A stretch of 64,000 nt of DNA from an uncultured bacterium (GCA_963749445.1 CAVVMJ010000003.1:64715-128714), one strand, 5' to 3'. Counted from the first letter of the stretch, positions 8,488 through 58,450 are shown. The notes: a model not told the origin generated them from the sequence alone. Program-made: numbers and translations.

Positions 8488-8516
8488 TTGACAAACTCCT
8501 TAAATATCATTATAAT
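8488..8516 (+). promoter_or_regulatory. consensus sigma70 promoter TTGACA-17-TATAAT
   Basis: cTTGACAaactccttaaatatcatTATAATgg. Confidence 0.65.
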
Positions 8517-8618
8517 GGCCGGTCCTCCGGAAGCGGTCCACACAAGACGTGGCGGGCCAAGTCGAGGCCCATATCCGGAAGACAAAGATCAATAAGGAGG
8601 AAAAAGAAAGGAGACTTT

Positions 8619-8891
8619 ATGTCCCCGACCTTGTTCCTATTGGTAGGACTGGCAACGGTAATGTTGTTTGGCGCCAAGTTTGACACCACACAACTGAAGG
8701 CAAAGCTGAAAAAGCGAGTGCCTCCCGTTAAATTCCTGCCAAGGGCGATAGGTTTAGCTCTCATAGCAGCCCAATGTTCGGAGCTGCTTAAGATGGTAGA
8801 GCAAACCTCACTCGTCCACCTGGTGGCCGCGCTGCTGTTGTTAGCAGTCATACTGGCCACCCGATCGGGAACAGAAGTCGGGACAGAGTAG
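8619..8891 (+). CDS. small membrane protein of about 90 aa with two predicted TM helices
   Basis: ATG at 8619 follows RBS aaggagg. The track ORF 8466..8891 begins inside the promoter, so its N-terminal extension is rejected. A GC-rich leader of about 100 nt precedes the gene. Confidence 0.5.
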   Translation: MSPTLFLLVGLATVMLFGAKFDTTQLKAKLKKRVPPVKFLPRAIGLALIAAQCSELLKMVEQTSLVHLVAALLLLAVILATRSGTEVGTE

Positions 8892-8939
8892 TCTCCTAGC
8901 GGGAGACTTTCTGCCTGTCAGAAGTTTCCTGATCAAAGA

Positions 8940-8975
8940 GCACCCAAATCCAATTGCGGATTTCGGGTGCTTTTT
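8940..8975 (+). terminator. rho-independent terminator
   Basis: gcacccaaatcc-aattgc-ggatttcgggtgc followed by ttttt. Confidence 0.7.
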
Positions 8976-8982
8976 AAAACGT

Positions 8983-33777: not shown

Positions 33778-33951
33778 TTATTTATGCTTGCGGACACCTT
33801 TAAAAAATTTGTTCCGTTTGGAATATTGATCCATGAACAAGTGAGTTTCTGTATCAATCTTAGTATACCGTTTTATTTTTGGATTCCAGACCTGAATCCT
33901 CTTTTTTACCGCACCAATTCGTCCTTTTCCCGGAGGAGGATTTATAGCCAT
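33778..33951 (-). CDS. possible small basic protein (57 aa); not in the track because it is under 60 aa
   Basis: MAINPPPGKGRIGAVKKRIQVWNPKIKRY... with RBS agaggg. Confidence 0.2.
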   Translation of the reverse strand: MAINPPPGKGRIGAVKKRIQVWNPKIKRYTKIDTETHLFMDQYSKRNKFFKGVRKHK

Positions 33952-34092
33952 ATTTATTCACCCTCTTTCCCTATCAATTTTTCGACCTTTAACTTAAATT
34001 TAAGACAGACTCTGTGGATAAACTCGTTTGACTCACTAAGTCATGTCCCCCTATAATAATAGTATAGTCGAAAATAAATCGAAAGTCAAGTT

Positions 34093-40269: not shown

Positions 40270-40497
40270 TTAATTTTTTCCTCCAGGTGGGCTTTTCTTG
40301 TCTGCCACACATCTAAAATAAGCTCCGCCCGTTCGAGGTTCCAAAGAGTCAAAGGAGTCGAAAGGTTTGACTTCTCTCAAAGCGGGAATCTTGCCGGTTA
40401 ATTCGGCAATCCGGGCTTCTACCTGCTGTAATTTATGTTCCGCGGCTTCCAGCGGAGTAAACCGCCCGATATCCCGCGCTATTTCGCCTTTGCTCAT
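40270..40497 (-). CDS. hypothetical protein (75 aa) with its own promoter
   Basis: Upstream on the reverse strand: TTGAAA, 17 nt, TAAAAT. Confidence 0.4.
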   Translation of the reverse strand: MSKGEIARDIGRFTPLEAAEHKLQQVEARIAELTGKIPALREVKPFDSFDSLEPRTGGAYFRCVADKKSPPGGKN

Positions 40498-40612
40498 AAA
40501 ATAAATCCCTCTTCTAAGGCTATTTTACGCCGATTAAGCATAAATTTCAACCATCGTCCATCATCGGGCGGATAATATCCGCCCCTACACCCCAATAATT
40601 CTAAACAGTTTA

Positions 40613-40663: not shown

Positions 40664-44583
<3,920 letters not shown>

Positions 44584-44770: not shown

Positions 44771-44859
44771 TTAATGCTCTTTACAACTCTCTCTCTGTGC
44801 TATTTTTAGCTGTCCATCATCCGAGAACTTTTCGGAAATAGGACAGGAATGGAGGAACT

Positions 44860-45141
44860 ATGTGCAATTGTGATTTACAGATCACTATCGCAACAGGTCT
44901 GGGGCGGACAGATGTAGTGACCGTTCGAGTTGCAAAGACGGTCAAATTCCAGGCTCAAGTTGGAGAAAAACCCATACCAGCCCCTGCTGCGGAAACTGAG
45001 TCAGGCTCTTTTCCAGGCTCTTTGGGGAGAGCTGCGGCAGAAGCCATGATCGCGGCTATAGACTATGGAAAATTCATAAGCCGCAGGGAGATCGCCATCA
45101 ACTTCACCTTCTGCCCCGCCTGCGGGCAAAAGCTTGACTGA
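44860..45141 (+). CDS. small Cys-containing protein (93 aa; N-terminal CNC, C-terminal CPAC), lying between rpoB and rpoC on the opposite strand
   Basis: RBS ggagg 5 nt before ATG; MCNCDL...CPACGQKLD. Confidence 0.4.
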   Translation: MCNCDLQITIATGLGRTDVVTVRVAKTVKFQAQVGEKPIPAPAAETESGSFPGSLGRAAAEAMIAAIDYGKFISRREIAINFTFCPACGQKLD

Positions 45142-45400
45142 ACCGCGCACCACCACTCGCCGCCTCGCCACCCGCGTCCGGTTCTGCCCCTCCGATGCTT
45201 ATCGGAGACTCGACAGAACCGGTCCGTTTTTTTTATGTAAAAGTTCTCTCGGGCTTTTTGCGGAGCTCCCCTCCCCTTCTGAGGGGAGGGTTAGGGAGAG
45301 GTTGTGCCCGACATCGGCTACTGCACCCTCTCTGTCCCGCTCCGCGGGACATCTCCCCCAGAGGGGGAGAAGGCTCCGCGGTTGTCCTTATTTCGGGCGG
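45142..45400. repeat. GC-rich hairpin-mosaic element copy D (intergenic, about 260 bp)
   Basis: ccggttctg...cagaaccgg then T8; ctcccctcccc-ttctg-aggggaggg; gtcccgc-tcc-gcgggac; tctccccc-agag-ggggaga; gctccgcggttgtcctt. Confidence 0.6.
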
Positions 45401-55017: not shown

Positions 55018-55575
55018 TTATCTTTTCCCCAACATTTGTAGAGCCTGTTTTAATTGCTGCTGGCTCGGCAATGTAGCGTCAAGCCTCTTTAACGCCTCCC
55101 GCACCTCGCGACTGTTATAACCAAGCGCGATTAACGCCTCAAACACGTCGCCGCTGGCCACGCCGCCGGCCGATTCAAACGCGCCGACCTTGGATTTTAA
55201 TTCCACAATAATTTTTTCCGCGGTCTTAAGGCCGATGCCGGAAATCCTGGTAAACACGGCCGCGTCTTGGTTAGCTATGGCCTGTCTGACCGCATCCACC
55301 CGCGCGGCGGAAAGTATCGCCAAAGCCACTTTTGGTCCCACGCCGGAAACCGTAATCAGCAGTTCAAAAAACTGCAAAGCCGCAAAATCCAGCAGGCCGT
55401 ACAAAGCCTGCCCGTCATCGCTGACCTTCATATAGGTGTAAAGCGCGGCCGAATCGCCAACCTTGAATTCCAAAGTCTCCGGCGTCACAAACACTTTATA
55501 GCCAACCCCGTTATTTTCCAAAATAATGTAGGTCAGCCCCTTTTCCAAAATTGTGCCTTTTAAATACGCTATCAT
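55018..55575 (-). CDS. ruvA: Holliday junction branch-migration protein RuvA
   Basis: MIAYLKGTILEKG...GVGYKVFV and helix-hairpin-helix motifs; 185 aa. Confidence 0.9.
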   Translation of the reverse strand: MIAYLKGTILEKGLTYIILENNGVGYKVFVTPETLEFKVGDSAALYTYMKVSDDGQALYGLLDFAALQFFELLITVSGVGPKVALAILSAARVDAVRQAIANQDAAVFTRISGIGLKTAEKIIVELKSKVGAFESAGGVASGDVFEALIALGYNSREVREALKRLDATLPSQQQLKQALQMLGKR

Positions 55576-55707
55576 TTACTCGCCAAAATTTTGCCCAAAC
55601 CGGTTGGGCGAATTTAATTATCAAAATAAAGATTAACAACTTAACTTTTTCAGACTACCCACGCAAAATTTCGGTAGATAAACTCATTTTACCACTATAA
55701 AACCCCG

Positions 55708-55736
55708 TTGACAAAGGCAATTTTTAGGCATAGAAT
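55708..55736 (+). promoter_or_regulatory. sigma70 promoter TTGACA-17-TAGAAT driving the ncRNA candidate
   Basis: gTTGACAaaggcaatttttaggcaTAGAATcc. Confidence 0.55.
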
Positions 55737-55743
55737 CCTATTA

Positions 55744-56138
55744 CTTTGGGTGAGTGCGGGCCGCTGGCAGGTCATAGTTGAGCAGCAGCTTGCCAGCGGC
55801 CTTGATCATACCGCCCTTACAGAAGGGTCTGGTGGCCACCCTGCGACCTCGGGGGTACAACCGAGCCCCGCCTGTGATGATGGTCTCCGAACCCCGGGAA
55901 TCGCCAACGCATCGCGGCAAATCGCAAGGCCCACCAGGGCATAATATTTTTCCCTCAGTTCTCGGGGACCGGATCTGAGGTTCGTGTCGGCGGGCTTCAG
56001 CGGATGGCGAAGCATCCAGACGGTCCCCGTCCAGCTTTCAGTAGGAGGAATTTTTACTTTTTTATTAGGAAGCAACTAATCAATGTCTGCTTCCCCCAGA
56101 CGCTGGTTACCCTGAGCAGCCCTGGGTCTTTTTTTTGT
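55744..56138 (+). ncRNA. candidate structured ncRNA of about 395 nt (identity unknown) between ruvA and uvrB
   Basis: Bounded by the consensus promoter and a terminator (cccag...ctggg followed by T8 at 56095..56138). GC-rich with several stable hairpins (gccgctggca...tgccagcggc; ggggaccg...cggtcccc); no credible ORF. Confidence 0.4.
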
Positions 56139-56344
56139 TCTACGATGATGCTAAAATTATACTGTCATTCCCGCGGAAGCGGGAATCTGTTTTCTGGATT
56201 CCGGATATTTTTGACTGATAATAATCTTTGGCAAAAATTCCGGAATGACATAGCGCTATGAATGAATTCACCCTAAAATCCAAATTCAAACCCGCCCTCC
56301 TTCGCTAAAGCTACGGCGGGCCTAATTCCTTTTATAAAATTTTA

Positions 56345-58450
56345 TTGATATTTATTATCATGGGAAAATTTAAACTAAAATCTAAATTCGCTCCGGCCGG
56401 CGACCAGCCGCAGGCGATTGACGGACTGATGAAATCCATTACCGCAGGCCGCCGCTACCAAACCCTTTTGGGCGTAACGGGCAGCGGCAAGACTTTTACC
56501 ATGGCCAACATTATAGAAAAAATCCAAAAACCCACGCTCGTCATTAGCCACAACAAAACTTTAGCCGCGCAATTAGCCGCCGAGTTCCAAGGATATTTTC
56601 CGGACAACGCGGTGCACTATTTTGTTTCCTACTACGATTACTACCAGCCCGAAGCCTACATTCCGCGGACCGACACTTACATAGAAAAGGACACGCAAAT
56701 CAACGAAGAAATCGACCGTTTGCGCAACGCCGCCACCCAATCCTTGCTGTCGCGGCAGGACGTGTTGATAGTGGCCAGTGTTTCCTGCATTTACGGCTTG
56801 GGCAATCCGGCCAATTATTTGGAACTGTCGCTAAAAATCAAGCAGGGCGAAAGCCTAAAACGGGACAAACTGCTGCGGCGGCTGACGGATTTGCAATATC
56901 ACAGAAACGACATAGATTTGCAGCGCGGCACTTTCCGCGCTCGCGGCGACGTGCTGGAAATTATCCTCTCTTCCGAAGACACCATAATCCGCATGGATTT
57001 TTTTGGCGATATTTTGGAAAAGATTGAACGCCTGGACGCGGTCTCCGGGCACAAAATCGAAGATTTGGACGAGTTTACCATTTTCCCGGCCAAGCACTTT
57101 GTCACGCCCGAGGACAAAATTAAGGAAGCCGCGGAAAATATCCGACTGGAGCTGACCGGCCGGCTTGCCGAACTTAAATCGCAGGGAAAAATTTTGGAAG
57201 CGGCGCGGCTTTTGCAGCGCACCAATTTTGATTTGGAAATGCTCACCAACACCGGTTTTGTGGCCGGCATAGAAAACTACTCCCGCCATATGGAAGGCCG
57301 CGAAGCCGGCAGTCCGCCTTCCACGTTAATAGATTATTTTCCGGATGATTTTTTGCTGTTTATTGATGAATCCCACCAGAGCGTACCGCAAATCGGCGCC
57401 ATGTACGAAGGCGACCGCTCGCGCAAAACCACGCTGGTGGATTACGGTTTCCGCCTGCCTTCCGCTTTGGACAACCGGCCGCTGAAGTTTGAGGAATTTG
57501 AAAAAAAGATCCATCAGGTAGTGTTTGTGTCCGCCACTCCCGCGGAATTTGAAATAGAAAGATCGCTGACCCAAAAAGACACCAAATTTACAACCAAATC
57601 CCGGCGCACCGAAGTCGAGCAAAGCATAATTGACGCCAGACCAAAATTAAAACAAATGGGCCCGCCTTCCATCGTAGAACAAATCATCCGCCCTACCGGC
57701 CTTATTGACCCCACGATTGAGATTAAGCCCATAAAAAACCAAGTGGATGATTTAATTGAGCGCATCAAAGAGCGCATGGAAAATCACCAAAGAGTTTTGG
57801 TGGCAACCCTGACCAAGCGCATGGCCGAAGAGCTGACCGAATATTTAAAGGAAGACGGGATTAAAGTGCAGTACGTGCACAGCGATGTGGACACGTTTGA
57901 ACGTTTGGAAATTTTGCGCGATTTACGTTTGGGAATTTATGACGTTTTGGTCGGAATAAATTTGCTTCGCGAGGGTTTGGACTTGCCCGAAGTCTCTCTT
58001 GTGACAATTCTTGACGCGGATAAAGAAGGTTTTTTGCGCTCTGAAACCTTCTTTATGCAAATGATGGGCCGCGCCGCGCGCCACCAGGAAGGCCACGTGG
58101 TTATGTACGCGGACAAAATCACCGGCTCAATGCAGCGCGCCATTGACGAAACCACCCGCCGCCGCAAACTGCAGGAAGCCTACAACAAAAAACACGGCAT
58201 CACGCCGCAAAGCATCCAAAAAGCCATCGGCGATTCCCGCATGGCCGGCAGCAAGGTAGAAATTGAGCTGGCTGATGATGAAGCCAAACGCCGCGACCCC
58301 GGCAAAATGGATAAACAGGAATTAAAATTTTATCTGGACGAACTGGGAGAACAAATGGACTTAGCCGCCAAGAACCTCGAGTTTGAGCTCGCCGCCCGCC
58401 TGCGCGATAGAATATCAGGAATTAAAAAAGTTAAAAAATTAAAAAAGTAG
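56345..58450 (+). CDS. uvrB: excinuclease ABC subunit B
   Basis: [10 protein letters not shown], helicase motifs, C-terminal UVR domain; 701 aa. Confidence 0.95.

Follow-up and report, generated by a model that had tools for sequence, protein, structure and literature searches.

The intergenic region between ruvA and uvrB of an uncultured bacterium very probably holds a real and independent gene for a non-coding, structured RNA, and the family to which this RNA belongs would be undescribed and lineage-specific. We studied the gene within a stretch of 64,000 nt of genomic DNA, which we refer to as the window, and the relatives of its RuvA protein indicate that the host is a member of Candidatus Doudnabacteria (Patescibacteria/CPR). 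An identical sequence is present in the Logan assembly of run ERR10755942 (locus L071 in our collection); its source sample may be the same as that of the window.

The genes on either side of the unit are ruvA, with RuvA_N, HHH_5 and RuvA_C domains, and uvrB; Pfam confirmed both and so agreed with the neighbors named in a first-pass annotation of the window. That annotation also described a self-contained unit of about 395 nt running from a near-consensus promoter to a canonical terminator (cccag...ctggg plus T8), and each of these features stood up to closer analysis (Table 1). Across both strands of the 64-kb window, no more than six sites, the promoter included, match the sigma-70 consensus at 11 or more of the 12 positions. 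The stem of the terminator is formed by CCCAG (56095-56099) and CUGGG (56122-56126), with an inner GCUG/CAGC helix; because the loop is large and branched, a simple scanner missed it. The transcript predicted from these limits, from about 55743 to 56136, is about 394 nt long. The GC content of the unit is about 60%, versus 33-51% in other intergenic stretches.

The -35 element of the RNA promoter overlaps that of the ruvA promoter, and the two form a back-to-back divergent pair that has the same layout in relatives. In most relatives ruvA is leaderless, since only 5-7 nt separate the end of its -10 from the ATG. In the window (within 55576-55707), as in loci L028 and L004, an additional spacer of about 100 nt is located there. 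On the other side, uvrB has its own extended -10 beyond the RNA, and therefore the RNA is a unit separate from uvrB.

Table 1. Features of the ruvA-uvrB region of the window, followed by the tRNAs and tRNA-shaped elements of related loci. Window positions are counted from its first letter; those in relatives are given relative to the SD-like box.
Feature	Position	Strand or locus	Description
RuvA	55018-55575	-	
ruvA promoter	55686-55714	-	TTGTCA, 17 nt, TG-TAAAAT; 10/12 match, with TG
RNA promoter	55708-55736	+	TTGACA (55708-55713), 17 nt, TAGAAT (55731-55736); 11/12 of sigma-70 consensus; predicted start A55743
Domain 1	55748-55816	+	outer stem GGGUG/CGCCC around a 13-bp hairpin (55759-55771 with 55789-55801); z -3.5
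Domain 2	55829-55937	+	multi-branch, closed by CUGGUGG/CCACCAG; z -2.3
Domain 3	55946-56053	+	three-way junction; core GGGGACCG (55964-55971) with CGGUCCCC (56021-56028), two hairpins; z -3.4
SD-like box	56042-56052	+	UAGGAGGAAUU; AU-rich context; sole sequence element common to all units
Post-box hairpin	56068-56094	+	GGAAGC(15-nt loop)GCUUCC, then CCCCC
Intrinsic terminator	56095-56136	+	branched hairpin 56095-56126, then UC and U8 (56129-56136); z -3.8
uvrB extended -10	56149-56157	+	TGcTAAAAT; outside the RNA; post-terminator sequence conserved in relatives (TGTTATGAT type)
UvrB start	56360	+	ATG; UvrB domains (Pfam)
tRNA-Ile	7 nt after box	L072, L073	
tRNA-Ile(UAU)	11 nt after box	L041	
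tRNA-Trp	27 nt after box	L046	
tRNA-Arg and tRNA-Asn	before and after box, respectively	L039	
Two odd tRNAs	before box	L010, L015	
Cloverleaf		L049, L045	GAAA or CCAAAAA replacing the anticodon loop

The DNA between the terminator and uvrB contains several other elements. An inverted-repeat (MITE-like) element, TGTCATTCC...GGAATGACA, is located at 56163-56249, between the uvrB -10 and a pseudo-start of uvrB. It contains the hairpin attcccgc-ggaa-gcgggaat, which had been reported upstream of uvrB and is indeed present at 56167-56186, and a similar element is found upstream of uvrB in L039. A sub-threshold Rfam match to FtrB (30.7 bits versus a gathering threshold of 66) is only the hairpin of this element and is outside the RNA unit. 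The pseudo-start, ATG 56257 (MNEFTLKSKFKPALLR*; 56257-56321), duplicates the real N-terminus of UvrB and is truncated by a GC-rich hairpin element (..TTCGCTAAAGCTACGGCGGGC, 56301-56321). Elements like this last one are in or next to the 5' end of uvrB in L002, L072 and L081, and two copies with three mismatches each are present elsewhere in the window, at 42218 and 50389.

The unit is non-coding. The ORFs that overlap it are chance ones, which start inside the promoter, cross the terminator or are on the opposite strand, and none of them has a Pfam match at the default cut-off; one opposite-strand ORF has a sub-threshold match to DUF4726 (E 0.07, 13.8 bits versus a cut-off of 27). The first-pass annotation, which had seen no credible ORF in the region, was thus correct on this point. 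It had also proposed that the RNA might be novel and had been unable to match it to tmRNA, RNase P RNA or SRP RNA, and searches with Rfam 15 bear this out. At the gathering threshold, the only hit in the whole window is a tRNA-Glu located elsewhere than the unit. At E<=10, no family was assigned to 55500-56400, the only hit that overlaps the unit being NsiR1 on the terminator (14.7 bits versus a gathering threshold of 39). Ten relatives searched at E<=1 gave only tRNAs and chance matches.

Individual families were also considered and rejected. For tmRNA, which has a tRNA-like domain made by its two ends, a T-arm, a 3' ACCA and a tag reading frame, ARAGORN found none in the window or in 30 loci, Rfam found none and the RNA ends in an intrinsic terminator. 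RNase P RNA (RF00010/RF00011) gave no match either, whether the window was searched at E<=10 or the 10 relatives at E<=1, and SRP RNA (4.5S/Bacteria_large_SRP), whose helix 8 has a conserved GNAR loop and symmetric-loop nucleotides, has no Rfam match. The same is true of 6S RNA; moreover, 6S RNA is a rod, about 180 nt long and with a bubble at its center, and the fold of our RNA is multi-domain with a unit length of 150-650 nt. GOLLD, ROOL, OLE, raiA, HEARO, T-box and the riboswitches of Rfam 15 gave no covariance-model match. The window RNA has two resemblances to these families: its GAGGAA is like CR-I of RNase P RNA, and the apex of domain 1 (CAGG-UCA-UAGU-UGA-GCAGC) is like SRP helix 8. 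Both failed on testing, by Rfam and by comparison of the window with L028. In a test for the P4 strands of RNase P RNA (CR-I GAGGAAAGUCC, CR-V ACAGAA..CCGG), the box is without AGUCC and has no long-range partner, and the SRP-like positions of the domain 1 loop differ between the window and L028. The suggestion in the first-pass annotation that the RNA is akin to other GC-rich elements of the window was not borne out; blastn-short with a word size of 9 found only chance 11-17-mers.

The description of the region as dense in hairpins holds for the strand that would be transcribed. The + strand folds with -167 kcal/mol and a z of -4.3, and none of 100 shuffles is as good, versus a z of -1.3 for the - strand of the same region. 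The four sub-domains have z values of -2.3 to -3.8 on the + strand (Table 1) and of -1.0 to -2.3 on the - strand. The structure that we propose for the body of the window RNA, which is without an alignable homologue, is a thermodynamic model. Domain 1 is the only part of the RNA body that is common to the window and its closest relatives, L028 and L081, and the single difference in its stem keeps the pairing (A-U in the window and L081, G-U in L028). A homologue of domain 2 was not found among the collected loci. The predicted outer helix of domain 3 includes the SD-like box, which, by thermodynamic prediction only, would pair with the U/C-rich AUUUUUCC (55946-55953); a similarly built domain, recognized by eye only, precedes the box in L036 and L046. 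Downstream of the box, the window RNA has only one hairpin and the terminator.

Relatives were gathered through RuvA from species genomes, metagenomes and exact-protein look-ups, which gave 81 loci, all of them ruvA-linked. The unit is present at the same site, between the divergent ruvA promoter and uvrB, in about 30 Doudnabacteria-type loci. These loci share a layout that consists of the divergent -35 (TTGACAAA), a -10, 150-650 nt of GC-rich and hairpin-dense sequence, a U-run terminator and the extended -10 of uvrB. The window unit has the same position, between the shared divergent -35 and the uvrB extended -10, and is on the uvrB strand. The U-run of the terminator is U6-U8 in most of the relatives and interrupted in a few. 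The unit is absent from the ruvA-uvrB site in L001 and L030, and in L030 the uvrB -10 is coupled straight to the TTGACA -35, an arrangement that resembles a clean deletion. These two loci suggest that the unit either is dispensable at the ruvA-uvrB site or is located elsewhere in their genomes. Therefore, the layout in about 30 loci and the absence in these two would make the unit a gene apart from uvrB, positionally conserved yet dispensable at the site. The ruvA-uvrB gap is also a hotspot of structural change, with duplication of the unit, insertion of a protein gene and clean loss between the two -10 boxes; for example, L032 has two units in tandem and L008 has an ATP-grasp ORF at the site.

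The position of the unit is kept and its sequence turns over rapidly. When the window RNA was compared with the 81 loci by nhmmer and blastn, the only matches, besides the identical L071, were to the promoter and first hairpin of L028 and L081. No match to the window RNA was obtained in phage or plasmid collections, and its first hairpin was not found in IMG/VR. L028 and L081 are in the same 90% RuvA cluster as the window, and their ruvA DNA is 83-88% identical to that of the window. The bodies of the three RNAs are 47-54% identical to each other, which is the random level (47-50% for the window versus L028 or L081). L028 has a 110-nt 5' domain and a post-box three-way junction in common with the more distant L006, L037 and L055 (70-85% identity), and because L028 shares these modules with them, the window and L081 lineages would have lost or replaced modules that are otherwise conserved. 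Replacement of whole cassettes from strain to strain was considered as a cause, and this idea had to be softened, since the neutral ruvA-to-promoter spacers of the window, L028 and L081 are themselves only 53-69% identical at 83-88% ruvA identity. The part of it that survives is that modules of L028 shared with the distant L006 and L037 are absent from the window and L081. Covariance models gave the same picture for the window: neither R1 (box plus three-way junction), which was found in nine loci, nor R2 (the 5' domain of L006, L028 and L037) has a match in the window RNA.

The module found with R1 consists of the box, GGGC, hairpin 1, hairpin 2 and GCCC, and its three-way junction starts 2-3 nt after the box. 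Sequences folded singly adopt the three-way-junction fold in most of the nine loci. In an alignment of seven of the sequences, which was fitted to the model and so favors the structure, 91% of the cells are paired, and eight pairs are changed on both sides versus 2.3 +/- 1.2 in shuffled alignments. None of 500 shuffles has as many such double-sided changes, and every slid register collapses. Hairpin 1 is represented by four unrelated stem sequences. The length differences between homologous hairpins in the relatives are not multiples of three. The covarying junction argues that the RNAs of the relatives are under structural selection. Structural conservation in relatives, a point on which the first-pass annotation had let its proposal depend, therefore held in part: the unit is positionally kept and one module of the relatives covaries, but the window body cannot be aligned and both R1 and R2 miss it.

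In eight loci, tRNAs or tRNA-shaped elements are located inside the unit (Table 1), and with these tRNAs the unit would be built like a stable-RNA operon. Either a tRNA or the three-way junction follows the box in about half of the members; the window unit has neither, as judged by ARAGORN and R1. Some of the tRNAs are unusual. The tRNA-shaped elements of L045 and L049, where the unit is upstream of ruvA, are without GG in the D-loop and have a UCC T-loop. The tRNAs of L010 and L015 have long D-loop insertions or odd anticodon loops, and ARAGORN either makes no call or reports tRNA-???.

The one sequence that all of the units share is the SD-like box. RGAGG in an AU context is present in 32 of the 32 RNAs, with the consensus UWAARGAGGAWUU, and the pattern [AU][AG]GAGG[AG] is present in 26 of 29 RNAs, versus 5.4 expected and a maximum of 12 in 200 dinucleotide shuffles. 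The window has an AU-flanked RGAGGRWU with no ORF after it. An AUG, GUG or UUG 3-15 nt downstream of the box is absent in 15 of the 32 units, including that of the window, and the peptides that follow the box in the remaining units are unrelated to each other, 3-60 aa long and have frame-breaking indels. The host genome is SD-poor, with a 5-nt SD core in only two of 42 ATG-start ORFs. The same strong RBS is found in front of a few genes (for ATG 8619 it reads AAUAAGGAGGAAAAAG), and because of these genes the box reads as a genuine RBS signal in this host. Since it is the only element kept in all of the units and no reading frame follows it, we infer that the box is the functional core of the RNA. 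The box was also considered as a preferentially single-stranded element, which the partition function does not support: the probability that its core is unpaired ranges from 0.01 to 0.69 across the RNAs and is 0.16 in the window. Depending on the unit, the box is located anywhere from the 5' end of the RNA to close to its 3' end, and so a simple role as a 5' stabilizer fits only some of the members.

Strong SD sequences elsewhere in the window deserve mention. The locus at 8488-8980 (+) has a perfect 12/12 promoter and a GC-rich leader, about 100 nt long, that contains UCCUCC; next come a double strong RBS (AAGGAGG..AAAGGAG), a membrane-protein-like ORF of about 90 aa (ATG 8619) and a terminator. 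The leader is possibly SD-sequestering. This locus therefore implies that a minority of genes in the host use strong SDs. Two more small ORFs with strong SD-like leads are at 40270-40513 (-) and at about 44850-45240 (+); one of them has 75 aa and no Pfam match, and the other has about 93 aa with a CPxCG-type motif at its end and is followed by a GC-rich terminator. The intergenic stretch at 33880-33960 has RBS-like boxes on both strands, and its AAUCCUC and GAGGAUU can form a 7-bp SD:anti-SD stem with a 30-nt loop.

The units are also rich in motifs that resemble the anti-SD. CCUCC occurs 41 times in them, versus 22.4 +/- 4.2 expected. Of 30 RNAs, 18 have anti-SD-like 5-mers within the 45 nt that precede the U-run, versus 8.6 +/- 2.2 expected, and none of 300 shuffles is as high. 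Their density in these 45 nt is 3.6 times that of the body, and they are mostly in unusually large terminator loops. The terminator region of the window has no CCUCC, CUCCU, CCUCU or UCCUC; only ACCCU and CUUCCCCC are present. The box is no more complementary to the remainder of the RNA than by chance (mean z 0.0; 0 of 26 RNAs at p<=0.05), and its complementarity to the terminator region is near chance (mean z -0.29, p = 0.08). A conserved intramolecular SD:anti-SD helix was dropped from consideration because the duplex energies are no better than those of shuffles.

As for how such a unit might work, we tentatively favor the following mechanism, to which, as a whole, we give somewhat less than an even chance. 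The strong promoter would drive transcription of one to several GC-rich, independently folding, fast-turnover domains, arranged like beads on a string. These would be followed by the AU-flanked SD-like box, by further modules (a tRNA, a tRNA-shaped element or a three-way junction in relatives, one hairpin only in the window) and by the intrinsic terminator. The box would dock the 3' tail of 16S rRNA, and with it the 30S subunit, without starting translation. Docking would stabilize or tether the RNA in the manner of STAB-SD elements, or else it would titrate 30S. The role of the GC-rich domains would be that of a protective, nuclease-resistant scaffold that is free to evolve, and the window member may be a reduced form. 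Transcription, the binding of 30S subunits and the consequences of binding are all read from the sequence here.

Other explanations account for some of the same patterns. It is possible, though rather unlikely, that the unit is the remnant of a decaying tRNA or stable-RNA operon, the ancestor of which had a promoter, a leader with the box, a tRNA and a terminator. The window would then have lost its tRNA or tRNA-like module, leaving a transcribed but functionless, near-neutral spacer. This would explain why tRNAs or tRNA-shaped elements are often found 7-40 nt after the box (L072, L041, L046, L039) and why the GGGC-hp1-hp2-GCCC junction of the nine loci, which begins so close to the box, is acceptor-stem-like. 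It would also explain why the window is without both of the modules that its close relative L028 shares with the distant L006 and L037, why its body is no more similar to L028 and L081 (47-50%) than the neighboring spacer is (53-69%), and why L001 and L030 can be without the unit. However, neutral decay at the observed divergence should wipe out GC content, fold, promoter, box and terminator. The window body is still about 60% GC, versus 33-51% in other intergenic DNA, its fold surpasses shuffles by a wide margin on the transcribed strand alone, and the near-consensus promoter, the box and the perfect U8 terminator have all been retained. A trans-acting regulator in the style of RNAIII or RsaE/RoxS is an unlikely explanation. 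Its C/U-rich anti-SD-like loops, especially that of the terminator, would pair with the SD of the few SD-led mRNAs, and the box would be an intramolecular mask or decoy. The enrichment of CCUCC and the anti-SD-like 5-mers near the U-run in 18 of the 30 RNAs fit this proposal, and the few strongly SD-led genes would be potential selective targets. However, the absence of any CCUCC-type 5-mer from the window terminator region makes it weak for the window member, and the chance-level complementarity of the box to the rest of the RNA and to the terminator region argues against a mask. We consider it quite unlikely that the units are CPR-specific ribosome-docking RNAs in a wider sense, in which the untranslated box recruits the 30S subunit while anti-SD-like terminator loops, in most members, capture another copy of the RNA or the rare mRNAs that are led by an SD. 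One hypervariable scaffold with both halves of the SD:anti-SD pair would then tune translation in an SD-poor genome, and the extreme turnover, like the tRNA-like decoys, would be the mark of an arms race in which the opponent could be, for instance, phage or host nucleases.

Three further explanations have less in their favor. That the unit is a long 5' leader or attenuator of uvrB, with the strong promoter feeding uvrB by regulated read-through of the terminator, is very unlikely. The unit is always directly upstream of uvrB on the same strand, and in L030 the same TTGACA -35 drives uvrB directly. However, the terminator is strong (U8), a conserved extended -10 follows every terminator, and no alternative antiterminator pairing was found above chance. 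In addition, the inverted-repeat element and the pseudo-start, more than 200 nt in all, separate the window terminator from uvrB, and tRNAs within a riboswitch-like leader would be unusual. A very divergent form of a universal RNA (RNase P RNA, tmRNA, SRP RNA or 6S RNA) is highly improbable. Size, GC-richness, strong promoter and terminator are as in rnpB or ssrA genes, and the two resemblances noted above, of GAGGAA to CR-I and of the domain 1 apex to SRP helix 8, point the same way. Against this are the failure of Rfam at E<=10 (window) and at E<=1 (10 relatives), the lack of an ARAGORN tmRNA call, the unit length of 150-650 nt and its absence in some genomes. The RNA is built from local domains in a row and has neither P1/P4 nor acceptor pairing at long range, and its SRP-like positions vary between the window and L028. 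Finally, it is barely credible that the SD-like box serves the translation of a small protein. By the standards of the host genome the box is a perfect RBS, but the window and 14 other units have no start codon 3-15 nt after it, and the remaining peptides, as described above, are short, unrelated and frame-broken, with no Pfam match.

The favored mechanism, a box that would dock 30S subunits without translation, can be compared with known systems. CPR rely on RNase J/Y-type decay, as do bacteria with STAB-SD elements. In Bacillus, ribosomes bound at a strong SD block RNase J1 (PMC5737220). STAB-SD elements (cryIIIA leader, hbs mRNA; PMC5737220) are like our units in that a strong SD-like sequence in an AU context is not, or not only, used for translation start. 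However, they are located in mRNA 5' UTRs and protect a downstream coding region, whereas the units have no ORF, the box can be anywhere and 30S binding is putative. Bacterial RNase P RNA is similarly GC-rich and about 400 nt long, with its own promoter and terminator and a GAGGAA after a hairpin domain. The units differ from it in that they lack AGUCC, the long-range ACAGAA/P4 pairing and a match to the covariance model, and their length and presence are variable.

GOLLD and ROOL are tRNA-linked large ncRNAs. They and tRNA operons are like the units in that structured RNA and tRNAs are produced from one strong promoter in a modular arrangement. However, the units have no Rfam match to GOLLD, ROOL, OLE or raiA; they are much smaller, chromosomal at a fixed housekeeping locus and without a conserved ornate fold. 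RNAIII of S. aureus and RsaE/RoxS are multi-hairpin regulatory RNAs with C-rich loops. Like the units they are long, hairpin-dense and independently transcribed, and many of the relatives show C/U-rich anti-SD-like loops, that of the terminator included. The units differ from them in having no Rfam match, an internal SD-like box, no conserved seed and a far faster turnover, and the window is without CCUCC loops. By analogy, the unit would work most like a STAB-SD element fused to a stable-RNA operon, and its relatives resemble multi-hairpin regulators that have C-rich loops. The unit belongs to none of the systems compared because every Rfam-based test of membership failed. In the literature on CPR or Doudnabacteria ncRNAs, we found no paper that describes such an RNA, and the unit clearly qualifies as a candidate for a new family of ncRNAs, one that evolves in an unusual way.

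In conclusion, CPR bacteria are uncultivated and their repertoire of non-coding RNAs is almost unexplored. The units described here have conserved their position, promoter, terminator and one RBS-like box of 11-13 nt, and the remainder has turned over as fast as neutral DNA or faster. Methods that discover families by sequence (Rfam, CMfinder-style pipelines) will consistently overlook such a pattern. If the unit is a decaying tRNA operon, it would document the erosion of stable-RNA operons in reduced genomes. If the box docks ribosomes without translation, it would provide a simple handle on how SD-poor lineages use the anti-SD that is still present in them.
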